From Botryllus schlosseri (Eukaryota): DNA of 64,000 nt. Of this stretch, positions 4,715-56,800 are shown one piece after another. The DNA lies in contig CM119371.1 in assembly GCA_051294905.1 (NCBI GenBank), forward strand, positions 9,426,001 through 9,490,000, given 5' to 3'. Numbering within the stretch: position 1 is the first letter of the stretch; each line of letters opens with the position of its first letter. The translations under genes and the position numbers were made by a program. Under the pieces are notes generated by a model that saw only the letters and a program-made list of their open reading frames with translations, was not told where the DNA came from and ran no database searches.

Positions 4715-4789
4715 TACTACAGACATTTGAATCGCAAGGCTCAAAAAACATTTTCAAGAATTAATTAAATTCTTGAAAATACTCTATAA

Positions 4790-7214
4790 CAGTGGTTCTC
4801 AACCGCCGGTCCGCGGACCGGTGCCGGTCTGCGACGACATTCCTGCCGGTTCGCCAGGTAAATTACAGTTTTATACCTTAATTTCTAGATGCAATGTTGG
4901 AGGCTTGTCCATTGATCAAATAAAAAAATGTCAAATTTTGAACTGATTCAGAACTTCGTGAGGTAACATTAGGGCTGGCAACATGTTCGACTTGACTTGA
5001 AGTTCAAGACGCGTCATTTCACGATACGCGAGCGACAAGTACAAAACAGAGACCAGCTGACTCATCGCTAAACAGCGCAGTTTGCTCGATCATTCGTTTT
5101 CGATTCATTCGTTTGTGCAGAACCCTAACTGGGGTACCCCAAACCTTCCGAGCTTAAAAAGGCGCAAAATCATTTTGAAAATGAACATAAATCATAGCGT
5201 ATTTTTTTTTTACTTTTCCAACATTTTTTAAATTATTTTCGGGCTTTGCGCGACTTAGTAATACTATATGTCTTGGTGCCCGTCTCCAAGAAATAGGCTA
5301 CGCATGATTAATGTGAATAGGCATTTCGGTGTCAGGCATTACCACGCCACGTCTTACCAACATATAATGAAGTTTAGGCTAACATGGGACTCAGAATGGT
5401 GTGCCAAAATTCGGTAGCGAGAAAACCGATTCAGTCATGAATGATCGAAAATTTTCGCTATTGCTGCGATTAAGCTACATAAACTCTCTGCCTTCACCAG
5501 TGGTTCTTAACCTTTTTTTCTCCAGCGCCCCCTTCCAAAAACTGTCTGGGTCTGGGCGCCCCCTATTTTAAATACCGTACTAAAAAACAATGGAAGTGGT
5601 CGAAGTCCGGTAGGTCTTTTCGGGTTTGGACTTTACTATTTGAAATATTTCGCGGTTGAATCGCGCCTGAGGACCAATCGAGTAATTAACGAACTTGTAT
5701 ATGTGCTATATTCGGGATCAAATCAAAGTTGTTATTCATAACGACATTCGGGTAGGTCTACCGGTTCATACCATCTGGTTCGAGCCCGATCTACACATCC
5801 CAATTTCACTTCTGCGATTGGCACTATACGGGAAGTTGATTGTATTGGTTTTTATTTCATTGTTTTGTGTTACTAGCAAATCAACTGAGAATGTGACGCT
5901 TTTCTCACATTGAATTAGTACTTCACCCAGCTCTTAGCTTCAAGATGAATGTATTCCAAACAAAGTTAACCATATCATATAACGCTCATGCGCGTTGTGG
6001 GTGACAAAACTAAACAGTAGTATCATTTATGATACGATGAAAAAAAATATATTTCCGAAATAACTTTGTAGCTCTTAAATACAATTATATTTCGATAATC
6101 ATTTTGGCCGGAAAGCTCCAAATCATCTTTAATGTACAAAGGGCATCACTCTCAAAAGTAGTAGCGTACAGCAGTGCCATCTGAACTGTTTCGACACAAT
6201 ATGCGCTGCAGGATACAATAAGTAAAGTTCGAAACATTTTATGGGAAATATATCGAGCTAGCGTGACGGGAGTGTTTTAACGGAGAATTGGATATTCAAA
6301 AGTACTCGCAATTTATTTTACACGAATTATACTAAACCAGTGCATGGAACCAGCGTAAGTCATTGTAATTTGTAATGAGACCTCAGGGATATATAGGACT
6401 CTTGTTCTACTATATAATCATATGCCCCTACTACACGATCTACTGCGACGCCTTTTTTCGTCAGCGCCGCCGTACCGCCCCCTGAGCCCAGCGCTCCCAT
6501 GTCACCCCCGTGGCGTTTCCGCTCCCTTTAAAATCCAAATAGCCCCTGGGGCGCTGGAGATAAGGTTAAGAACCACTGGCTTTCACAGAGTAGAATGAAT
6601 GCATGCTCACAAGTACAGGTTAAAATATCCACACAACTGTGGGGTTCGGGGGCGGATCTCCAGGTAGTTTGGCTTATCGCACTGTGGGGATCAAGACCAA
6701 CGTTGTTTGAGGTGGGATGATGATGAGATTTTTGGGCCCGGATTTGCGGATCACCAAGATAGCTGTTGTAAGGTGTATTCGTGCGGCGCGTTGTATTCGT
6801 AGTTTCCAGAGTAGTAGCGTCTGGTGGTTGTGGGTAATGAGTAAGGTATCACGGTAAGGTGCTTGGTTCGACTCCGAAACGCTTCTTCTATCGATATTGT
6901 CAGACAGAAGAATGTTATTCCAGTTGGCGTGGTCGGTTAAATCCATGGCCGTCGGCGCGAAAGACCGTAAACGACTCTGGGCATTAGCATGTTTATTTGC
7001 GGACAAGGCAATTTTATCTCGATTCAGCAGACTCAGTACCATAAAATCACATGGATACTATCATGAAGATAATTAAAATTACGATCAAACCCTCTAAATG
7101 CCACTCTCTAGCACCATATAGTTGACAATAATAGTTGCGTACTTAACATTTTGGCTGCATTTCAATTTTTGAAAGTTCACCGGTCCGCGAGGCGATAAAG
7201 GTTGAGAACCACTG
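4790..7214. mobile_element. hAT (Buster/Charlie-type) non-autonomous element
   Basis: TIRs CAGTGGTTCTCAACC / GGTTGAGAACCACTG; perfect TSD CTCTATAA. Confidence 0.9.
5498..6578. mobile_element. hAT-type MITE nested in 4790-7214
   Basis: TIRs CAGTGGTTCTTAACC / GGTTAAGAACCACTG; TSD GCCTTCAC / GCTTTCAC. Confidence 0.85.
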
Positions 7215-41526: not shown

Positions 41527-41768
41527 CTCACTAGCATCCATCTTCAGCCACGCTCTCAGTCAATTCGCTACTCAGCCAACTCAACACGCGGTCTCCAGCC
41601 ATACTACGCGCAACACAATTTCTAACGGCAAATACAGAACATTCTGGAAACCTCGAAACTCGTCAATCTCGGTCATTCATATCTTCGTCGGTATTGATGA
41701 GGATGAGATGTATCACAACGTGGATACGAGGTTACTGATCTGGTCCAAACTCGTGTTCCGATTCTCAG

Positions 41769-41920
41769 GTGGGTACTACCTTTTTGAACATTCCACTTGG
41801 GATGGAATCACTGGGTTTGGATCGGACGGCCGCGTCCATTTTACTCACCTGTCAATTGGCCGGCGATCTCGCTGGAAGGATATTTGTTGGACTGATCGGT
41901 GATTGCAAGGGTGTGAATAC
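41769..41920 (+). CDS. SLC16-like exon 5 (TM7-TM8 region)
   Basis: Acceptor TCTCAG; VGTTFLNIPLGMESLGLDRTAASILLTCQLAGDLAGRIFVGLIGDCKGVN (MCT TM8 D...R...G..D); donor GTAAGT at 41921. Confidence 0.85.
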
Positions 41921-41960
41921 GTAAGTTAGTAGTATAGTAGATCTCTCGTGATGCGCCATT

Positions 41961-42180
41961 GGTTTCTTATGGCGGGGTCGCGAGCGGCTGGAAAACCGGG
42001 GGTGGCGAGCGGCTCCTTATGCCTTATGGCGGGGTGGCGAGCGGCTATTGCGTCTTATGGCGGGGGTGGCAAGCGGCTCTTATTTCTTATGGCGGAGGTC
42101 GCAAGCGGCTGAGAAACCGGGGGTGGCGAGCGGCTTTTATGTCTTATGGCGGGGGTGGCGAGCGGCTATTGTGTCTTGTG
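41961..42180 (+). repeat. G-rich subterminal tandem repeats (mirror at 55903-56122)
   Basis: About 7 units of (TCTTATGGC)GGGGGTGGCGAGCGGCT with a higher-order period of about 121 bp. Confidence 0.9.
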
Positions 42181-45100
42181 GTCGCACGGTAACCCTTTTC
42201 AGTATAGACAGCGGTCGCACGCGGCTTCGTCGTTGGCATGTCGTACTTCGTGTTGAATATGTATCAAGTAAATAGTCATGTGAATGAACCTTTGTTAATG
42301 TGTATATCGTCGTGTATTATTACACGGTGTCTACTGATTCGCCATGTGTTCTTATGGGTGCGGTCGTGATTCGCACTTTCGGGTATAGGCATCTCTCGCA
42401 CATCGCATGGAAAACTCGTGGTGGCACATCGCCCTTTCGGGTATTGACATCTCTCGCACGTCGTACTTTCGCATGTCGTGCTTTCGCGTATAGGTTGTGT
42501 TGGTGATTCGCCATGCGTTCTTATGGGTGTGGCGGTGATTCGTACTTTCGGGTATATACATCTCTCGACCGTTGTTGAATATGTATCAAGTAAATAGTCA
42601 TGTGAATGAATCTTTGTTAATGTGTATATCGTGCCGCACAAACGGAAACGCGGCTTGTTGTGAGGATTAAGCAGTGCGACCTATATTTCGAATGACCTGT
42701 GTGTGGAATTGTTTCACGGCCAGCCGCGTGCTACTATCGATGATTTCACTAATCCTGTCAGCACTATTACATTCAGGAGTATTCAGTATTCAGCAGCGAC
42801 ACGAAAAGCGATCAACAAATAACCGCGTTCACAAACTAACACTTCAAAAATGTGTGAAATAGTTTGCAAAACCCCGCGATCGCTGACAAGATAATGTCTC
42901 GGGCATAACCATTTTAGTGATTTGGTGTTAAAGACATACCGATCGCTCACAAGGTAATATTTCGGTAATTAGTTTGTCACAGAGCCGTCGCAGACGGTGA
43001 TTCGAAAACCAACAATTTGACACTTTCTGGTGCTTGCTATATGTTTTGACACTTCGGAACGTGGTCGACTTTAGTTGTATGATAAGAATCATGTGAATAT
43101 ACAAGTAATGTGTCAATTTGTCAACTTGAAATGAAACTTACTGCACAAACCAAGTTGATTCGTATCTGAATGTGTTAATTCGGTACAATTCTAATTATTT
43201 TGAGAAATCTTTTGATTCGACCGTAACCGAATATTACTGACGCCGACTTTCAGCCGCATCGAATTATTCGCACATTCCGCGCCGCTGTTTTCGCACTTAT
43301 AGAATCAACACAACTATAACTCGACAAGAATCAAGAATCACAAGTATGTGTATTATACAGTTATTGTCTTTATCAACACGAAATCAAACTCTTAACAAAA
43401 ACACGCAACTAATCATTTGCCAGCTCTAACATTATCAAAAAATTCCAGTATTGTTGATTGAAAATCCTCGAGTCCTTATTATCAAAAACGTTATAGTACG
43501 GTGTCGGAATCCATTCGCGGGGTGTACTAAAGCTAAATCCAGATAATCCAAAATGAAATATTTGGACTTTGACATAGTGTGAATTGAAATAGGATTGACA
43601 AACATGACTACCAACTTCCCCACAGTCCCGTTTCGATATTATACATACATTGATTTGAAACAAGTAATGAAACATCACAACTCTATTCACGGTCTGGCTT
43701 TCCGTTTGTCAAAGAGATATTTTTACATCTTACCATACTCAAAAGAATTATTCACAACATTACCAATTGTTAAAAATCTAGTTTTCAATTACTTGATTAT
43801 ATCACTGCAACTCATGAATTTGAATTAATTCATCCTGGTTGTATTCGTATGCTCGGTCTTTTTTTATTCGATTGTAAAGGTTGTTACTATTCTGAAGACA
43901 AAGTAATTACTACTCGGTGCATATTCGTTTTTACTTGGACATATTATATTTTGAGTATACGAGATTTGAATGTCTGAACAATAACTGAGAAATAATTTAT
44001 CACAATTAAATCCGTATATTACAGCGTAAAAGATATTTGAATGTCAGCAACTCGGTAAGATCATAGTTACTACCACATTACCTAATTTACCCGACCAACT
44101 CGTCATGAGCATTCCCGAAATCAACACAAACATGAATACTGACTTGAGTTAACCACAAAACAGCATCAAGTTTTAAATCCACTTGTAGCTTACGGATTAT
44201 TTGAATGCGGGTTATGTTTTGTTGTAATTGAGTGTACGGAAATAGTATTACGTCTTGACATCTTACCATCTTACGATATTCAAAGAGTCAACCACGAAAA
44301 CATTGTCAAGTAAATCCGTTACCCGACCAACTCAAACAGTATCAGTACGAAAAACAGCCAAACATACACGAGTCCATACAATCACTAAAACCTAAAATCC
44401 ATAACAAGTTCGGTTGTATTCATATCCCTACACATCTTTTTTTTTTTATTCAGCTTGAAAAGTCGTTACTATTCTGTAAGATAAAGGAATTACTACGCGG
44501 TATATTCTGCAAGACAAACTAATTACTACTCGGTATATTTTGTAAGACAAAAGTAATTACTTCTCAGTGTCGGCGACTTGAGATTAACATAATATGTTTG
44601 AGTATACGAGATTTGAAAGTCTGATCAACGTAGTTGCGACTTCATTTCTTACAATCGAACGCTGGTGTTATATTCAAAGTTATCATGCTGTAAACATAAG
44701 GATTGACACATTGATTTGACATATGTTATAGTTGATCATGACTTGATTATTAAATTATTCGCGTTAATTAGACACGGCGTTGTGGTAAATGTTATGACAG
44801 CAACAAACTTTTCAGTGCCAATGTTATTAACATATTAAGCTGTAAAACTATGTGTGTCTGAAATGTTCTTGATAGGAAAATTACTCCACCTTGGTAAAAA
44901 TCACTCTGCGTATCGTGGATATCAGAAAATATTTCCAGTAACCAAGACTAAAGATGAAACGACAATATCGGAATTATTACATTCAACAATCAGTACAATT
45001 ATTAAAATCTATCGTTTGCGATAAACAGCGCTAAAGATGTAATTATCCCAGTATTCATACATCCGATACAAAATGCTTTATTATCCCGATTCACAACGGT

Positions 45101-47379
45101 TAATTGAAACGACTAAGTGTAGAGTCAGTATATTACAATGACACGTCGTTACTATTGAATCCAGCAATTGATACGATTTATTGTCGGGATTTGTGACAGC
45201 GCATTGAAACATACACAACTTACAAAGTGTGAAAATATCACTTTGGGTATCGAGTACCGTTTGAAGCGTGCGATCAATACATAATTCCGTTCACACTCTC
45301 TAAGGCGTTGTGAAGTCTACAGATTTACACTTCAAGACTTTGATCAACACAAAAACAATTTGGAGTATCTTTACTGGATACATCCTATTCTACTAGACTT
45401 GAGTAATACACAAAACTCATAGCATTAACAAAATCGCAATAGGAGCTACACTGAAATCTACAAATGTGTTTGCATTGTTGTTAGTGATCATAAATTATCA
45501 TTTGAATAAGTAATTGTAATCATAAAACCAAACTTGCGAAAGTCATTACCATAACAAAAGAATATTGTAGGTTGCTTGCTAAATGTACGCCAGAAATATT
45601 TGTAGAACGCTCACGACCAAAGAAATCGGAAATTTCCCCACACGGTCATTCGTCAAAGTATATGTTGTCACAATACTCATCCCGTAAAAGATCTTACTTG
45701 TATGTGATTGAATCGCTGGTAATTAACCCGCTAAATCAAACCACAAGGAAATTTCACTCACTCATCGGATATTAAACAGCGTCACTTAATCGGCGTAGAT
45801 GATTTTTTCTAAATGCAAATCATATCTGTCCACCCAAGAACAATTTTCACTCACTTGGGTAACGAAACCAAGCGGTGGGCCTTCGTTCAATATTTTGTTT
45901 GTGTCAAATACTTTGCAATAAACACACTGGAGTGGTTGAGCTTTACATCATCAAGCTGTCATCTGTAAATCGAGATCACATCCGACTTGTAACTGTATCG
46001 TTTACCTAACCGAGTTGTATGCACAGTTTCATATTTTTATCATTTAGTGATTGCTGAACATACCAAACGATACACATTCACTTCCGAAATACTGCGTTGA
46101 TCTCAATTCCCTTTGTCGTGATAACCGAAGTACATTTGTTTCGACTTCGTAACAGCCGACTTTTCTATGACACGATAAATTTTGACAAGTTATGCTTAGA
46201 AGATTGGTTGCATATCGCGAAAAATAACATACTGCTCATATTGATACTGTTAATCGGTATTTTCACGCGAGTCGATTTTCAAATGAGTAAAATTTATTAC
46301 ATGAGTTTCTCCGCTTAATGTAAATGAAAACTCAGTCGTCTTTTAACATCACAAAGACATTGATCAAAAGTAAGCAATCAAACACAACACTTTGTACGAC
46401 ACTAATTATTGTTCCACACATCTCATTTCATACCAAGTGTATACGAAAGATATTCATGTTACACGAAAATATTCGCTCATGCTACAAACCTGTACAATGA
46501 TTGGTGGTGTAAGGCCAGCACAATTGTGGTATCCATACGAGTTTAGTTAACACAATTTACGACACCGAGGTCGCCCCATCTTTCGTAAGACAACAAACCA
46601 AGGCTTCAGGATATGTCCATGTCATAGCAATGAATCGGCTACTCCAACAACAGAGTGCATATGTTTTCTAGTTACGGTGCTTACATCTTACACACAAATC
46701 AATCTACTTTGCTAACGAAAAGTGGTGAGTCATCATATGGTTATCCTCACTAGTAAAACATACTATCATACAAAATGGTCGTTATAGTTTGCACACCAAC
46801 GGTACATCGTACAAGTAACAAGTCTCGAGAATCCAGTTATTCAAAAAACGTGAAAGTATTTCTACACCAAGTTGTTATGTTGACGAAAGCGTATATTGTA
46901 ATATCATGATCGATTTGCATTCGTTGGTCACAAACTGTCACTACTCTAAATAATTCTTTTTCACTCAAAACCTACTTGTCACCATTCGTTTTCATCAAGT
47001 ACGAGTTCAAGAAACTTACTACGACATGAATTTTTATTTTTATGTTGTGTAAATAGGTAATAATTAATTCAAGTAACACTATATCAACATCATCGAGTTG
47101 CGCGAATAGATTTACATGTGGTCTTGTGGTTTTCATCGGGACATACAGCACGAACTAACTGTAGACTCCTCTCTGTTGTACAGCTACTCGGTAATCGACA
47201 TGCATTAACATGTAAACAACGATCTTGTTTCGTCACACCAAAAATATGTTCACTGTCGCGATACTCCGCACAAGACGTGCATAGCCTTTTCACACTCGTA
47301 ATAGTATACCAACGTCAAGCGATAACGTTTAACAAGACCAACGACACTGATCCCACGACGTTTACCTATGTAAAATTAC

Positions 47380-47870
47380 CACTTTCACTTGCCAGTCCAT
47401 CGTTTACCTGACTAAACATATTATTTTCCTTTGGAGATCTGATGTTTATCCAGAGTAAGAAACCTTTTTCACTTGGAAATCTATTTTTTCCTTGGCTAAC
47501 AAACCTTTTTTCACTTGTAAATATGTTTTTTCCTTGGCTAACAAACCTTTTTTCACTTGGAAATCTATTTTTTCTCTGGTTAACAAACCTTTTTCCTGGG
47601 TAACAAACCTTTTTCCCTGAGCAACAAGCCATTTTCACTTGGTGGTCCGTCGTTTACCTGAGTAAAAATATCATTTTCCTTTGGGGATCTGGCGTTTACC
47701 CGGTGTAACAATACATTTTCGCTTAGAAAAATACTTTTACCTAGAGTAACTAATCATTTTCTCCTGGGTAACAATCCCTTTTCGTCTGGAAACTATCATT
47801 TAACTGAGTACCAATACCGTTTTCACTTGGAAATGCATTTTTTCCCTGGGTAACAATACTATTTTCGTTT
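47380..47870. repeat. Internal minisatellite of the arms (mirror at about 50220-50710)
   Basis: Repeated CAAGTGAAAA and CCA(A/G)GGAAAA motifs, including near-exact units of about 43 bp. Confidence 0.85.
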
Positions 47871-50800
47871 TGAAAACTGACAACCACACCGGTCAATTTG
47901 ATATTTTTGTATATTGTTACAACGAACAGTGACGGAAATATACACAGACTACCGGTTTCAGAGTACACCCCATCGGTCGTATCACGTCAATATCATCGGT
48001 TAAGCACATACAATATACTCTTGTACACCGAAATGCACGCTTTGGAAAATTGGACAATAGGCTGCGATAGTTCTGTGATGTCCGGGTTCGTGCTTTAGAT
48101 TTTCAGAGTCAAAATGTCTGAATAAAACACCTCCTCGACGACGGTTGGTATGTGGATAACGGTGTTCGGAAAACGGTTGGATTTATGTCGCCCATCGCGA
48201 TAACAATTCCTGGTCGAGTTTTTCTCCGGCATGTTTGCTATATTGTGTCTTTATTGGTCAATGTATGTCTCGACATTCAGTTTGAAATCGGAAATGATAA
48301 AGTATGTAACCGGATCCGGATATCAACTCTGAATCGATAAACCAATGAACAATATTCAAAGTAAACATGTCACACCCTGTGTTTCCACGAAAAAATACCA
48401 TCCAGACATACGTCGCGCTTGTTTGCCCACATCAGTATACGCGCAAATGGAGGTGTGTGACATTGCATGCAATGTGTTGGTATACAAACATCGATCCACA
48501 GACATTATCATAGCCGGTAGTTTTGATGTAGATCGAATGTCACCCGATAACAATACCAATAAGCCACATTGCAATGACTCTGAGTCCGTCTGAGCATGAC
48601 ATAAAGACACACAAACATAGAAACCGTAACATGGGGTATTCGCACGACGGTGAAAGTGAACTATACAGCATATACCAGTAGAGTGTTCACAGTCAAATAT
48701 GCGAACCGTGCACAATCATATACCCAGGTTTTTGCTGAATATGTACGAAACCAATAAATCGATACATTTCTTTTCTCTGGACATCAATATTACAATCGCC
48801 ATTCAAATGCATCGCTCGAATGTGAGGTTCGTCGGGTGTAAAATCCATGTCAAATAACACCAAAGTGTGCCTTCCGTGTTTTATTATTTCCACCGACGCT
48901 TCTTGCCTGTGTCGTAACACTATGGTGCAGGGACTCGAAAAACGATGGATTGCGAAACTGATTGACATGTTCTTCGATATGACCAGCAGAATTGATGTCA
49001 ATACCCTTGTGATGATGTCGTTTCAAAATGTTACCGATCTCTTGTGGCGATGACCGTTTCGAAATGTCACCGGATGAACTGGACCCTTACAAAAGTGTGT
49101 TTTTTGATTGCGTGTGAAATCACGAGGTAGTGTTCTATTGTGGTGTACGATTGCAGATTCCACAGAAACACACCTTATTGGATCACAGTATCAGTCCGAG
49201 ATTTTCAGAATCACTGTTCACGATATTTACCTGGAGTCATTATGTGGGAGTAGCGACATCCCGTGATTTAGTGAAAGACTGATCGCAATCATTTCGAGCA
49301 CCGTACTTCGATAGTTCACATTGGTCAAACGCTGTACAACAGAAAATTTCGGTGTCGACAACACGACGGATATTGACGATGTATCCAATTGGTCTGGGTG
49401 ATCTTTCGGGAGATAGGGTCATGACTATCTTGCAATGTAACAACACGATAACACCATCGAGTAAATCAGTGAACGGTGTCGAAATATCGATGTAATAGCG
49501 CGGACTCATAGTCATTGCAATGTGGCTTATTGGTATTGTTATCGGGTGACATTCGATCTACATCAAAACTACCGGCTATGATAATGTCTGTGGATCGATG
49601 TTTGTATACCAACACATTGCATGCAATGTCACACACCTCCATTTGCGCGTATACTGATGTGGGCAAACAAGCGCGACGTATGTCTGGATGGTATTTTTTC
49701 GTGGAAACACAGGGTGTGACATGTTTACTTTGAATATTGTTCATTGGTTTATCGATTCAGAGTTGATATCCGGATCCGGTTACATACTTTATCATTTCCG
49801 ATTTCAAACTGAATGTCGAGACATACATTGACCAATAAAGACACAATATAGCAAACATGCCGGAGAAAAACTCGACCAGGAATTGTTATCGCGATGGGCG
49901 ACATAAATCCAACCGTTTTCCGAACACCGTTATCCACATACCAACCGTCGTCGAGGAGGTGTTTTATTCAGACATTTTGACTCTGAAAATCTAAAGCACG
50001 AACCCGGACATCACAGAACTATCGCAGCCTATTGTCCAATTTTCCAAAGCGTGCATTTCGGTGTACAAGAGTATATTGTATGTGCTTAACCGATGATATT
50101 GACGTGATACGACCGATGGGGTGTACTCTGAAACCGGTAGTCTGTGTATATTTCCGTCACTGTTCGTTGTAACAATATACAAAAATATCAAATTGACCGG
50201 TGTGGTTGTCAGTTTTCAAAACGAAAATAGTATTGTTACCCAGGGAAAAAATGCATTTCCAAGTGAAAACGGTATTGGTACTCAGTTAAATGATAGTTTC
50301 CAGACGAAAAGGGATTGTTACCCAGGAGAAAATGATTAGTTACTCTAGGTAAAAGTATTTTTCTAAGCGAAAATGTATTGTTACACCGGGTAAACGCCAG
50401 ATCCCCAAAGGAAAATGATATTTTTACTCAGGTAAACGACGGACCACCAAGTGAAAATGGCTTGTTGCTCAGGGAAAAAGGTTTGTTACCCAGGAAAAAG
50501 GTTTGTTAACCAGAGAAAAAATAGATTTCCAAGTGAAAAAAGGTTTGTTAGCCAAGGAAAAAACATATTTACAAGTGAAAAAAGGTTTGTTAGCCAAGGA
50601 AAAAATAGATTTCCAAGTGAAAAAGGTTTCTTACTCTGGGTAAACATCAGATCTCCAAAGGAAAATAATATGTTTAGTCAGGTAAACGATGGACTGGCAA
50701 GTGAAAGTGGTAATTTTACATAGGTAAACGTCGTGGGATCAGTGTCGTTGGTCTTGTTAAACGTTATCGCTTGACGTTGGTATACTATTACGAGTGTGAA

Positions 50801-53800
50801 AAGGCTATGCACGTCTTGTGCGGAGTATCGCGACAGTGAACATATTTTTGGTGTGACGAAACAAGATCGTTGTTTACATGTTAATGCATGTCGATTACCG
50901 AGTAGCTGTACAACAGAGAGGAGTCTACAGTTAGTTCGTGCTGTATGTCCCGATGAAAACCACAAGACCACATGTAAATCTATTCGCGCAACTCGATGAT
51001 GTTGATATAGTGTTACTAAAATTAATTATTACCTATTTACACAACATAAAAATAACAATTCATGTCGTAGCAGGTTTCTTGAACTCGTGCTTGATGAAAC
51101 GAATGGTGACAAGTAGGTTTTGAGTGAAAAATAATTATTTAGAGTAGTGACATTTTGTGACCAACGAATGTAAATCGATCATGATATTACAATATATGCT
51201 TTCGTCAACATACCGACTTGGCGTAGAAACACTTTCACGTTTTTTGAATAACTGGTTTCTCGAGCCTTGCTATACTTGTACGATGTATCGTTGGTGTGCA
51301 AACTATAACGGCCATTTTGTATGATAGTATGTTTTAGTTGTATTGTTGTGATGACTCAGCACTTTTCGTTAGCAAAGTGGGTTGATTTGTGTGTAAGATG
51401 TAAGCACCGTGCTAGAAAACATATGTACTCTGTTGTTGGAGTAGCTGATTTATTGTTATGACATGGACATATCCTGAAGCCTTGGTTTGTTGTCTTACGA
51501 AAGATGGGGCGACCTCGGTGTCGTAAATTGTGTTAACTAAACTCGTATGGATACCACAATTGTGCTGGCCTTACACCACCAATCATTGTACAGGTTTGTA
51601 GCATGAGCGAATATTTTCGTGTAACATGAATATCTTTCGTATACACTTGGTATGAAATGAGATGTGTGGAACAATAATTAGTGTCGTACAAAGTGTTGTG
51701 TTTGATTGCTTACTTTTGATCAATGTCTTTGTGATGTTAAAAGACGACTGAGTTTTCATTTACATTAAGCGGAGAAACTCATGTAATAAATTTTACTCAT
51801 TTGAAAATCGACTCGCGTGAAAATACCGATTAACAGTATCAATATGAGCAGTATGTTATTTTTCGCGATATGCAACCAATCTTCTAAGCATAACTTGTCA
51901 AAATTTATCGTGTCATAGAAAAGTCGGCTGTTACGAAGTCGAAACAAATGTACTTCGGTTATCACGACAAAGGGAATTGAGATCAACGCAGTATTTCGGA
52001 AGTGAATGTGTATCGTTTGGTATGTTCAGCAATCACTAAATGATAAAAATATGAAACTGTGCATACAACTCGGTTAGGTAAACGATACAGTTACAAGTCG
52101 GATGTGATCTCGATTTACAGATGACAGCTTGATGATGTAAAGCTCAACCACTCCAGTGTGTTTATTGCAAAGTATTTGACACAAACAAAATATTGAACGA
52201 AGGCCCACCGCTTGGTTTCGTTACCCAAGTGAGTGAAAATTGTTCTTGGGTGGACAGATATGATTTGCATTTAGAAAAAATCATCTACGCCGATTAAGTG
52301 ACGCTGTTTAATATCCGATGAGTGAGTGAAATTTCCTTGTGGTTTGATTTAGCGGGTTAATTACCAGCGATTCAATCACATACAAGTAAGATCTTTTACG
52401 GGATGAGTATTGTGACAACATATACTTTGACGAATGACCGTGTGGGGAAATTTCCGATTTCTTTGGTCGTGAGCGTTCTACAAATATTTCTGGCGTACAT
52501 TTAGCAAGCAACCTACAATATTCTTTTGTTATGGTAATGACTTTCGCAAGTTTGGTTTTATGATTACAATTACTTATTCAAATGATAATTTATGATCACT
52601 AACAACAATGCAAACACATTTGTAGATTTCAGTGTAGCTCCTATTGCGATTTTGTTAATGCTATGAGTTTTGTGTATTACTCAAGTCTAGTAGAATAGGA
52701 TGTATCCAGTAAAGATACTCCAAATTGTTTTTGTGTTGATCAAAGTCTTGAAGTGTAAATCTGTAGACTTCACAACGCCTTAGAGAGTGTGAACGGAATT
52801 ATGTATTGATCGCACGCTTCAAACGGTACTCGATACCCAAAGTGATATTTTCACACTTTGTAAGTTGTGTATGTTTCAATGCGCTGTCACAAATCCCGAC
52901 AATAAATCGTATCAATTGCTGGATTCAATAGTAACGACGTGTCATTGTAATATACTGACTCTACACTTAGTCGTTTCAATTAACCGTTGTGAATCGGGAT
53001 AATAAAGCATTTTGTATCGGATGTATGAATACTGGGATAATTACATCTTTAGCGCTGTTTATCGCAAACGATAGATTTTAATAATTGTACTGATTGTTGA
53101 ATGTAATAATTCCGATATTGTCGTTTCATCTTTAGTCTTGGTTACTGGAAATATTTTCTGATATCCACGATACGCAGAGTGATTTTTACCAAGGTGGAGT
53201 AATTTTCCTATCAAGAACATTTCAGACACACATAGTTTTACAGCTTAATATGTTAATAACATTGGCACTGAAAAGTTTGTTGCTGTCATAACATTTACCA
53301 CAACGCCGTGTCTAATTAACGCGAATAATTTAATAATCAAGTCATGATCAACTATAACATATGTCAAATCAATGTGTCAATCCTTATGTTTACAGCATGA
53401 TAACTTTGAATATAACACCAGCGTTCGATTGTAAGAAATGAAGTCGCAACTACGTTGATCAGACTTTCAAATCTCGTATACTCAAACATATTATGTTAAT
53501 CTCAAGTCGCCGACACTGAGAAGTAATTACTTTTGTCTTACAAAATATACCGAGTAGTAATTAGTTTGTCTTGCAGAATATACCGCGTAGTAATTCCTTT
53601 ATCTTACAGAATAGTAACGACTTTTCAAGCTGAATAAAAAAAAAAAGATGTGTAGGGATATGAATACAACCGAACTTGTTATGGATTTTAGGTTTTAGTG
53701 ATTGTATGGACTCGTGTATGTTTGGCTGTTTTTCGTACTGATACTGTTTGAGTTGGTCGGGTAACGGATTTACTTGACAATGTTTTCGTGGTTGACTCTT

Positions 53801-56800
53801 TGAATATCGTAAGATGGTAAGATGTCAAGACGTAATACTATTTCCGTACACTCAATTACAACAAAACATAACCCGCATTCAAATAATCCGTAAGCTACAA
53901 GTGGATTTAAAACTTGATGCTGTTTTGTGGTTAACTCAAGTCAGTATTCATGTTTGTGTTGATTTCGGGAATGCTCATGACGAGTTGGTCGGGTAAATTA
54001 GGTAATGTGGTAGTAACTATGATCTTACCGAGTTGCTGACATTCAAATATCTTTTACGCTGTAATATACGGATTTAATTGTGATAAATTATTTCTCAGTT
54101 ATTGTTCAGACATTCAAATCTCGTATACTCAAAATATAATATGTCCAAGTAAAAACGAATATGCACCGAGTAGTAATTACTTTGTCTTCAGAATAGTAAC
54201 AACCTTTACAATCGAATAAAAAAAGACCGAGCATACGAATACAACCAGGATGAATTAATTCAAATTCATGAGTTGCAGTGATATAATCAAGTAATTGAAA
54301 ACTAGATTTTTAACAATTGGTAATGTTGTGAATAATTCTTTTGAGTATGGTAAGATGTAAAAATATCTCTTTGACAAACGGAAAGCCAGACCGTGAATAG
54401 AGTTGTGATGTTTCATTACTTGTTTCAAATCAATGTATGTATAATATCGAAACGGGACTGTGGGGAAGTTGGTAGTCATGTTTGTCAATCCTATTTCAAT
54501 TCACACTATGTCAAAGTCCAAATATTTCATTTTGGATTATCTGGATTTAGCTTTAGTACACCCCGCGAATGGATTCCGACACCGTACTATAACGTTTTTG
54601 ATAATAAGGACTCGAGGATTTTCAATCAACAATACTGGAATTTTTTGATAATGTTAGAGCTGGCAAATGATTAGTTGCGTGTTTTTGTTAAGAGTTTGAT
54701 TTCGTGTTGATAAAGACAATAACTGTATAATACACATACTTGTGATTCTTGATTCTTGTCGAGTTATAGTTGTGTTGATTCTATAAGTGCGAAAACAGCG
54801 GCGCGGAATGTGCGAATAATTCGATGCGGCTGAAAGTCGGCGTCAGTAATATTCGGTTACGGTCGAATCAAAAGATTTCTCAAAATAATTAGAATTGTAC
54901 CGAATTAACACATTCAGATACGAATCAACTTGGTTTGTGCAGTAAGTTTCATTTCAAGTTGACAAATTGACACATTACTTGTATATTCACATGATTCTTA
55001 TCATACAACTAAAGTCGACCACGTTCCGAAGTGTCAAAACATATAGCAAGCACCAGAAAGTGTCAAATTGTTGGTTTTCGAATCACCGTCTGCGACGGCT
55101 CTGTGACAAACTAATTACCGAAATATTACCTTGTGAGCGATCGGTATGTCTTTAACACCAAATCACTAAAATGGTTATGCCCGAGACATTATCTTGTCAG
55201 CGATCGCGGGGTTTTGCAAACTATTTCACACATTTTTGAAGTGTTAGTTTGTGAACGCGGTTATTTGTTGATCGCTTTTCGTGTCGCTGCTGAATACTGA
55301 ATACTCCTGAATGTAATAGTGCTGACAGGATTAGTGAAATCATCGATAGTAGCACGCGGCTGGCCGTGAAACAATTCCACACACAGGTCATTCGAAATAT
55401 AGGTCGCACTGCTTAATCCTCACAACAAGCCGCGTTTCCGTTTGTGCGGCACGATATACACATTAACAAAGATTCATTCACATGACTATTTACTTGATAC
55501 ATATTCAACACCGGTCGAGAGATGTATATACCCGAAAGTACGAATCACCGCCACACCCATAAGAACGCATGGCGAATCACCAACACAACCTATACGCGAA
55601 AGCACGACATGCGAAAGTACGACGTGCGAGAGATGTCAATACCCGAAAGGGCGATGTGCCACCACGAGTTTTCCATGCGATGTGCGAGAGATGCCTATAC
55701 CCGAAAGTGCGAATCACGACCGCACCCATAAGAACACATGGCGAATCAGTAGACACCGTGTAATAATACACGACGATATACACATTAACAAAGGTTCATT
55801 CACATGACTATTTACTTGATACATATTCAACACGAAGTACGACATGCCAACGACGAAGCCGCGTGCGACCGCTGTCTATACTGAAAAGGGTTACCGTGCG
55901 ACCACAAGACACAATAGCCGCTCGCCACCCCCGCCATAAGACATAAAAGCCGCTCGCCACCCCCGGTTTCTCAGCCGCTTGCGACCTCCGCCATAAGAAA
56001 TAAGAGCCGCTTGCCACCCCCGCCATAAGACGCAATAGCCGCTCGCCACCCCGCCATAAGGCATAAGGAGCCGCTCGCCACCCCCGGTTTTCCAGCCGCT
56101 CGCGACCCCGCCATAAGAAACCAATGGCGCATCACGAGAGATCTACTATACTACTTAAGTTGGGTACCTTGTTTTTCGACTCAAATAAAGTCAGAATGGG
56201 CAGTTGGACACATTGCTGGTTTAACAACTCAGTGGCGTTTGGGTGGGATAAAATTAGGTTCTGTATAGTGACGGTAAAGATTACACTAGCAGACATTCTT
56301 CAACTTTTTTGGCTTTATTTATCATCCAGTGTGCTGTGCCTCTTCTTTACATCGACGAGGCCCACGTGGGTGTCTGATTTCTATAAGACTACTCCAAGTC
56401 GTTTCGACGCCCTCCTATCCTTTCATTGTATCGCAGTCTTGTGATGTTTTGAAAGGAAGAACATATTAATAATTGATACTGATATCACAAACTAGGCCAA
56501 AAATACTTACTTTTGTACATACTTTTAAAAAGTTACTTTTTCTTCTAGTTGAGTACCGATGGTAAGTACTTTGACCACCTCTGATGACGTCACAATGATA
56601 TAGCTATGACCCAACAGCAATGAATACGGCACAGAACAGGCTGCTTTTAGCACTGAAATGCAAAATTTTAAATCACAGATCGTAAAGAATCTTGACGTGA
56701 TAGAAAAAAGCGACTTCATATTCGTAATTAGCGTACGAAAATTGAGTTGCTAGTCACTATTTTGGCAAAAAAGCAAAAATCATGTCGACTAGTGTAACGG

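Follow-up and report, generated by a model that had tools for sequence, protein, structure and literature searches.

What kind of mobile element consists almost entirely of one palindrome, carries no genes, and has two halves that are nearly the same? This question is raised by a locus of Botryllus schlosseri that lies in a stretch of 64,000 nucleotides on contig CM119371.1 (positions 9,426,001 to 9,490,000 of assembly GCA_051294905.1). This whole stretch is called the window in the following, and coordinates without a contig number are those of the window. By mapping inverted repeats and ends, the element was located at 41928-56155 (14,228 bp). An initial annotation, made from the letters alone, had interpreted it as a Polinton/Maverick-like element that arose by snap-back or copy-back replication. 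Our analysis makes it probable that the element is a member of a family with very many copies, namely gene-less derivatives of Polintons (Mavericks) that depend on helpers, have the form of inverted dimers, undergo resetting of their arms in replication, and are held to their length by a capsid.

The element comprises a left arm of 6661 nt (41928..48588, plus strand), which runs inward from the terminus AGTAGTATAGTAG, a unique spacer of 912 bp (48589..49500, plus strand), and a right arm of 6655 nt (49501..56155, minus strand), which is the reverse complement of the left one and closes with CTACTATACTACT. The inverted-repeat search yielded one pair of 4744 nt with 100% identity (41928-46671/51412-56155) and one of 1599 nt with 99% identity (46990-48588/49501-51099), whose inner ends are 912 nt apart. 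Altogether, inverted repeats account for 94% of the element, and at such identity a chance origin of a 6.6-kb inverted repeat is impossible. The left boundary reads ...cgTAAGTT followed by AGTAGTATAGTAGATC..., and the right boundary reads ...GATCTACTATACTACT followed by TAAGTTggg.... The termini are AGTAGT...ACTACT, and the 6-bp target-site duplication TAAGTT (41922..41927 and 56156..56161) is perfect. In a global alignment the arms differ by 35 mismatches and 6 gap events. A tract of 445 bp at 46627..47071 (plus strand; mirror at ~51014..51463, minus strand) holds 32 of these mismatches and all of the gaps, which leaves 3 mismatches in the other ~6.2 kb of the arm. Further features are subterminal repeats of ~32 and 121 bp (41963-42181, plus strand), which lie inside the terminal ~472 bp (41928..42399, plus strand) common to all other sampled copies at 87-95%, and tandem repeats of 42/84 bp (47456..47724, plus strand; mirror 50369-50665), whose unit number differs among copies and, in some copies, between the arms.

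The longest stop-to-stop frame of the element has 134 amino acids (aa). None of the 42 frames from the left arm and the spacer (the whole element has 81 frames of at least 60 aa) reached a curated Pfam cut-off, and neither an Rfam family nor a tRNA was found in the element. A tblastn search with 15 open reading frames (ORFs) of helper elements, which are introduced below, detected no remnant in this copy. Polintons code for a family-B polymerase primed by a protein and for an integrase of retroviral type "by definition" (PMC5499653). Both genes are absent from the window element, which is therefore a non-autonomous derivative and not a Polinton in the strict sense. Every particular that the initial annotation had listed, namely the arms, the 912-bp spacer, the AGTAGT termini, the perfect TAAGTT duplication and the lack of a long ORF, was confirmed.

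The insertion lies directly after a coding-exon-like stretch (41739-41927) that ends ...GTGAATACG followed by GTAAGTT, and one frame of which resembles a membrane transporter by eye. If this stretch is an exon, the duplicated TAAGTT is part of its splice donor, which was kept despite the insertion. No Pfam family was found for the 61-aa frame of the presumed exon. Among the Logan contigs, which were short and consisted mostly of repeat words, a 330-nt contig of run X1 extends from the left flank 30 nt into the element, 1 short of the length set for bridging. One RNA run contributed 77 reads on the locus, nearly all of which match only partly.

How widespread is this architecture? In the genome searched (495.5 Mb, 219 contigs), a search with the initial 600 bp of the element gave many matches, which lie in inverted pairs 13-16 kb apart (best 40 of 2352 candidates). 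The terminal motif AGTAGT-N6-GATC-N2-TCG occurs 1005 times in forward and 1002 times in reverse orientation; these 2,007 matches, compared with 12 + 18 = 30 for the reversed motif used as a control, correspond to about a thousand elements. A 21-nt motif taken from the spacer (48835-48855) was found at 323 + 387 = 710 places, and its control at none. Being counts of exact matches, both numbers underestimate the size of the family. The closest subfamily of the window element has 22 termini. Multiplying ~700 spacers by roughly 14 kb gives ~10 Mb, i.e. ~2% of the 495 Mb.

Ten other copies were compared with the window element (C15, C26, C12, C7b, C7a, C9, C8, C6, C14, C11). Seven of them are long palindromes with totals of 12.7-16.0 kb, whose arms differ by 0 to 21 mismatches over 4.5-6.8 kb. 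These are C15 (14,493 bp; arms of 6766/6767 bp, spacer of 960 bp, 4 arm mismatches), C26 (14,023 bp; 6546, 931, 3), C12 (13,891 bp; 6495, 901, 0), C7b (13,349 bp; 6161/6121, 1067, 7), C7a (13,777 bp; 6477/6394, 906, 11), C9 (12,702 bp; arms of ~4.9 kb, 20 mismatches), and C8 (16,026 bp; 4.5-kb arms plus further structure, 21 mismatches). C6 is a rearranged sibling of C15, and C14 is non-palindromic, with merely a 700-bp repeat. A search with the end sequence for copies with other duplications had been named as a check; each of the ten examined has its own perfect one, such that all 11 copies are flanked by perfect 6-bp duplications that differ each time. The ends AGTAGT...ACTACT are found in the window element and in nine of the ten others, one end of C9 reading AGTAAT. 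Lengths were surveyed along contig 1 up to 25.6 Mb, where 35 adjacent plus/minus pairs of termini lie less than 25 kb apart. In 16 pairs the spacer motif is at most 600 bp from the midpoint, and these measure 12,888-14,955 bp (median 13,666); the remaining 19 span 3.3-23.7 kb. Several hundred copies have this inverted-dimer architecture.

Some further observations were made on these copies. On contig 1, three pairs of termini are nested at 16768420-16810257 (41.8, 28.7 and 14.7 kb), which suggests insertions of elements into elements. C6 contains a duplicated pair of ORFs of 271 and 220 aa (L033, 2214-3685 and 5046-6517), probably another mobile element inserted in an arm; the 271-aa ORF has a weak match to an Sgf11-type zinc finger, below cut-off. 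The inverted match of C9 extends ~280 bp past its termini and its GACCAC duplication (L037, 26-302; L038, 6335-6619), and C9 thus seemingly lies inside another inverted repeat. In C14, ~7.4 kb between the arm-like left part and the 700-bp right repeat (L041, 6704-7601; L042, 1-6542) are almost without a match among the sequences compared, and L042 contains no frame of at least 120 aa in this stretch. A different repeat, with AGTAGTTTTGGTCGATCG(C/T)TCG, was found between 162773 and 3823620 of contig 1 at 15 of the 23 places matched by an N7-spaced version of the terminal pattern; all 15 are on the minus strand, 0.1-0.6 Mb apart.

Did the palindrome originate in the window copy or in a predecessor? 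The spacers of the window element, C26, C12 and C7a align end to end, that of C15 aligns partly, and that of C7b is different. The arm-spacer junctions of the window element match those of C12, C7a and C26 within a few bases (three of the five copies aligned). As the spacer and both junctions are common to diverged copies, the palindrome is ancestral to the family. Furthermore, since the spacer motif occurs at 710 places and the junctions are common to copies that are 81-94% identical, the fold-back dates from the founding of a large family or from close to it. The arm homologue of C14 stops exactly at the left junction of the window element and, on the other side, extends past the right junction for 29-31 nt of spacer sequence; the same result was obtained with C26, C7a and C12. 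This asymmetry, which is seen in one relative and over ~30 nt, would fit an original unit of end, arm and spacer whose broken inner end was folded or copied back to form the joint at the left junction. Like helper-dependent adenovirus genomes of this form, the window element and the palindromic copies are inverted dimers of a unit below full size, with viral ends at either side.

Divergence between the arms of one copy is 0-0.5%. Different copies align by megablast over 1.3-5.3 kb of ~7.5 kb, and in these parts they are 81-94% identical, which corresponds to differences of 6-19%; the exception is the sibling pair C15/C6, which is 99.5-99.7% identical and has different duplications. The best match of an arm is its own partner for all 16 arms of the eight clean palindromes, and for 18 of 22 over all arms. 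Because the arms within a copy are near-identical while copies are 6-19% apart, the arms evolve in concert. In the 1.88 kb for which all four arms of C15 and C6 are present, there are 4 differences: 2 are found on both arms of each copy, and 2 are one-arm changes in C15, C6 having none. Counted along the full arm, C6 differs from both C15 arms by 6 substitutions, and the two C15 arms differ from each other by 4. Differences that affect two arms in such close siblings imply that changes are transferred from arm to arm on a short time scale.

Resident copies also gather differences on one arm, including indels of 41 and 83 bp in the tandem repeats, and sequence is exchanged between lineages. The left version of the divergent tract of the window element is nearest to C26 (95.1%), and the right version resembles the right arm of C11 (96.2%); the nearest relatives of the flanking sequence are C12/C9 upstream and C8/C26 downstream. 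As the nearest relatives change along the arm, the arms are mosaics, and the right-arm tract (51014-51463) was probably imported from another lineage after the last resetting. One arm of C11 is C14-like and the other C7b-like; an interpretation of this copy as a decayed palindrome was rejected, since its arms stem from two lineages. That the arms of a copy are so alike is a sign of ongoing resetting or homogenisation together with young insertions, and not of the age of the fold-back. Of the initial alternative of a recent event or ongoing homogenisation, the results agree with the latter, together with young insertions; a recent fold-back in this copy is not supported, the palindrome being common to the family.

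Which elements might supply the missing functions? With the PF03175 profile at its default threshold no match was found in the genome. At E values up to 10 there are nine weak places, two of which are the host polymerases delta and alpha, and the others led to a family of Polinton polymerases. When a polymerase ORF of this family was used as the genome query, the best 41 of 373 candidates all matched over at least 975 residues; 37 of these 41 copies are without a stop, and their frames of 1020-1300 aa fall into three size classes. Relatives in the protein collection were found with E values down to 4e-185 and identities of 31-38%; some are named DNA-directed DNA polymerase, and PF03175 is carried by 62 of 120 among the matches listed. 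A helper copy on contig 3 (~9621200-9637000) encodes an integrase of 359 aa with an rve domain (PF00665, 60.3 bits, E 2.4e-16) and a Chromo domain (37.5 bits, E 2.2e-9), an ATPase of 215 aa with a P-loop (weak Pox_A32 match of 16.3 bits, below cut-off), and some ten compact ORFs to which no family was assigned. For one ORF of 301 aa, a language model gave a lead to Preplasmiviricota clusters and nothing firmer. The near terminus of this copy is expected ~0.8 kb beyond the stretch examined. On the basis of these predicted products, dozens of intact Polintons would be present in the genome, each equipped with a protein-primed polymerase, an integrase of the rve-chromo type and an ATPase with a P-loop.

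Many relatives of the polymerase in other invertebrates are annotated as C2H2 zinc-finger proteins or named as such, which suggests an N-terminal zinc-finger region or fusions of gene models. The host-type polymerase delta (contig 5:11747019-11750414) is encoded in a single uninterrupted frame of 1075 aa, and likewise the host-type polymerase alpha (contig 11:12224237-12227347) in one of 1455 aa, of which 1037 aa, open at both ends, fall within the locus examined; this is unusual for an animal-like genome. Polinton ends of a second class, recognisable by CGCTGGTGACC-type subterminal repeats, are paired at distances of 12-24 kb and have only the first few dozen bases in common with the class of the window element. 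Two classes of ends mean that several lineages of helpers and ends coexist.

The gene-less family is connected to these helpers by several links. At contig 1:24394130 there is a truncated, polymerase-bearing element whose 21-nt terminus is one base off that of the window element and whose start resembles the window element's end for ~45 nt by eye; the subterminal repeats differ. Two small helper genes have left remnants in this element, and its polymerase gene is cut near residue 750, after which follow 746 bp that are 82% identical to positions 4733-5452 of the window arm. The end-proximal 217-aa gene of the helper has left remnants in C14 and in each arm of C26. The end of C14, in turn, is 91% identical to the first 472 bp of the window element and matches the ends found at a distance of 3.9-4.0 kb from three intact polymerase genes (contig 14, 21253370; contig 3, 37580243; contig 8, 27484403), with 90-96% identity over positions 324/382-1202 and 79-82% over 1-81/90. 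The family thus has ends in common with autonomous elements of the same genome; for the window element, this holds indirectly beyond ~45 nt. On the grounds of the 6-bp duplication, the AGTAGT ends, and partners in the same genome that have polymerase, rve integrase and related ends, the initial assignment to non-autonomous elements of the Polinton/Maverick type is upheld.

These results can be combined into the following proposal. The body of a family member consists of a terminus, an arm of 6.1-6.8 kb, a spacer of ~0.9-1.1 kb, the same arm inverted, and a terminus. Its founder may have been a truncated Polinton derivative of ~7.5 kb (end, arm and present spacer) that was folded back or copied back. 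The ends, the duplications and the copy number suggest mobilisation in trans: the protein-primed polymerase of the helper would replicate the copies from their AGTAGT ends, and its integrase would insert them. A displaced or excised single strand could snap into a hairpin with a 6.6-kb stem and a 0.9-kb loop. Correction of mismatches in the stem, or copying of the second arm from the first on the nascent strand, would render the arms identical in each cycle. Every new insertion would then start with identical arms, like the long terminal repeats (LTRs) of a retrotransposon after reverse transcription. Finally, the capacity of the helper capsid might hold the length at 13-15 kb, comparable to helper-dependent adenovirus genomes of half size, which enter the capsid as inverted dimers. 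The range of 12.9-15.0 kb persists despite many indels, which fits selection of an inverted dimer by capsid size. As for the initial suggestion that the length is related to packaging, the 16 centrally marked copies in this range make a constraint plausible.

Several points weigh against this proposal. Replication, hairpin resetting and packaging are modelled on analogous systems; the narrow range of lengths may partly reflect common ancestry, and gene conversion between arms in place could also keep them alike. The two-lineage arms of C11 and the 445-bp foreign tract of the window element mean that resetting is not absolute. With PF03175 the polymerase ORF reaches no more than 17-18 bits, a Pfam search assigned it to no family, and by sequence it matches no solved structure (one chance match, E 0.08). 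Of the components looked for in an autonomous partner, polymerase, integrase and P-loop ATPase were found, and no capsid or protease gene was recognised among the ORFs examined in the contig-3 helper. This helper is longer than 15.8 kb, with both ends beyond the stretch examined. Moreover, the terminal 472 bp of the window element do not occur beside any polymerase gene among the matches listed; its link to the helpers runs via the relatives C14 and C26 and via the first ~21-45 nt.

How do other explanations compare? The main competitor concerns the identity of the arms: the family would be as described, with arms kept alike mainly by chromosomal gene conversion from arm to arm, as is the case for the palindromes of sex chromosomes and the inverted repeats of plastids. 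Long inverted repeats that are close together are good substrates for this process, the 445-bp foreign tract and the mosaic arms are signs of recombination on the copies, and the symmetric differences in C15/C6 fit equally well. However, six of the seven other palindromes have retained 3-21 one-arm differences per copy, some copies have arm indels of 41 or 83 bp, and the persistence of the heterogeneous C11 implies that correction in place is not fast; in addition, the perfect duplications of 11 out of 11 copies point to young insertions. Gene conversion as the main cause is thus rather unlikely, although it deserves serious consideration. A small chance is left for the idea that the copies are kept for a use to the host, such as a hairpin-RNA source of small RNAs directed against Polintons. 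Transcribed long inverted repeats do yield double-stranded RNA, but the arms have almost no sequence in common with the coding regions of the helpers, and the sequence gives no sign of a dedicated promoter.

The remaining explanations are less probable still. If the window copy were a one-off defective genome, formed recently from an ordinary Polinton by snap-back or copy-back, this would account for its near-identical arms, its intact duplication, and the asymmetric spacer junctions expected of a fold-back. From this original interpretation the fold-back as such can be retained, since it fits the asymmetry. A recent event in this copy is very improbable in view of a spacer and junctions that are common to copies just 81-94% identical to it, the 710 places with the spacer motif, and the absence of remnants of all 15 helper ORFs. 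Mobilisation by another superfamily of DNA transposons with 6-bp duplications, the likeness to Polinton ends being a coincidence, agrees with the lack of any Polinton gene remnant in the window copy and with the different subterminal repeats, beyond ~45 nt, of the polymerase-bearing element at contig 1:24394130. It is nevertheless hardly to be expected, given a 21-nt terminus that this element has in common with the family except for one base, remnants of the terminal helper gene in family members, and end regions 90-96% identical to ends beside intact polymerase genes. Assemblers of long reads can create inverted duplications, and the palindrome at this locus is known here from the assembly alone. 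A fold-back artefact of assembly is nonetheless next to impossible, because eight clean palindromes occur at eight loci with differing perfect 6-bp duplications, arm lengths and diverged sequences, and because pairs of termini with a central spacer motif recur on contig 1.

The proposed helper-dependent family of inverted dimers can be compared with known systems. Polintons are given as 13-25 kb long, with inverted repeats of 100-1500 bp and duplications of 5-8 bp (10.1101/2023.08.22.554363). The family resembles them in its 6-bp duplication, its AG...CT ends with AGTAGT, its terminal inverted repeats and its length within 13-25 kb, and it deviates by its lack of genes and by repeats of 6.1-6.8 kb instead of the 100-1500 bp quoted. 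In an account of a lizard Polinton, the copy has repeats of 584 bp, and non-autonomous relatives were not found there (PMC3014272). As described for butterflies, Polintons may have terminal repeats of ~2 kb that contain hexon and adenain genes (10.1101/2025.02.07.637071); these are likewise unusually long and duplicate internal sequence, but they are coding, of autonomous type and enclose a large unique core, in contrast to the non-coding ~0.9-kb spacer found here. Full-text literature searches, the coverage of which did not extend to Repbase Reports or to Kapitonov and Jurka 2006, retrieved no gene-less or palindromic Polinton family; according to the initial annotation, palindromic non-autonomous Polintons have reportedly been described from zebrafish. 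Kapitonov and Jurka reportedly described in 2006 the 5'-AG...CT-3' termini of Polintons with a short terminal tandem repeat, which was taken to serve protein-primed initiation. According to a replication model that is itself a proposal, Polintons pass through a single-stranded intermediate whose terminal inverted repeats pair to form the origin (PMC4046053).

A close parallel is provided by adenoviruses, in which symmetric virus-host recombinants (SYREC) and snap-back DNA in incomplete particles are known. As reported for helper-dependent vectors, genomes undergo rearrangement if they are shorter than ~75% of the full size, and packaged direct and inverted dimers were obtained from a 15-kb vector (PMC4189039). 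Both systems are gene-less and keep only their ends, the vectors are protein-primed linear replicons as the family members would be, and the sub-size vectors turn into inverted dimers of near-genome length that the helper capsid accepts. In contrast to these non-integrating products of cell culture, the family described here is a heritable, integrating and diversified lineage that is known from sequence alone. Large non-autonomous retrotransposon derivatives (LARDs; PMC6431247), which retain nothing but their cis ends, are similar in being long and non-coding, in outnumbering their helpers and, if the proposal holds, in having paired repeats made identical at insertion through replication; they differ by an RNA intermediate and direct repeats. 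Foldback (FB) transposons have arms of tandem repeats and 9-bp duplications. Together with long-TIR Mutator/Foldback elements (TIR, terminal inverted repeat), they resemble the window family as mobile, often gene-less elements that are mostly a long inverted repeat; the arms of the window element, however, are complex sequence with tandem repeats as a small part, and are combined with a 6-bp duplication and Polinton termini. The family is therefore best classified as a non-autonomous Polinton derivative with an inverted-dimer body that has been amplified to hundreds of copies.

The formation of virions by Polintons and their replication are still known almost only from sequence. In the present family the halves of a copy stay identical, lineages are 6-19% apart, length stays within ~2 kb, and tracts are exchanged; its hundreds of copies are natural replicates with which the copying of ends, the correction of repeats and the tolerated size can be tested. 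Gene-based searches for Polintons would miss the family entirely, and its long perfect palindromes are potential fragile sites. In a bolder version of the proposal, which we consider possible but put forward only tentatively, the family would be a "hairpin satellite": a haploid genome of ~7 kb that exists as a 14-kb inverted dimer since only this size fits the helper capsid, and whose second arm is re-copied or corrected in a single-stranded hairpin in every cycle. If this were true, the ~700 copies would be the first natural record of single-stranded fold-back replication and size-limited packaging of Polintons, and the family would be a defective-interfering parasite that outnumbers its helper.

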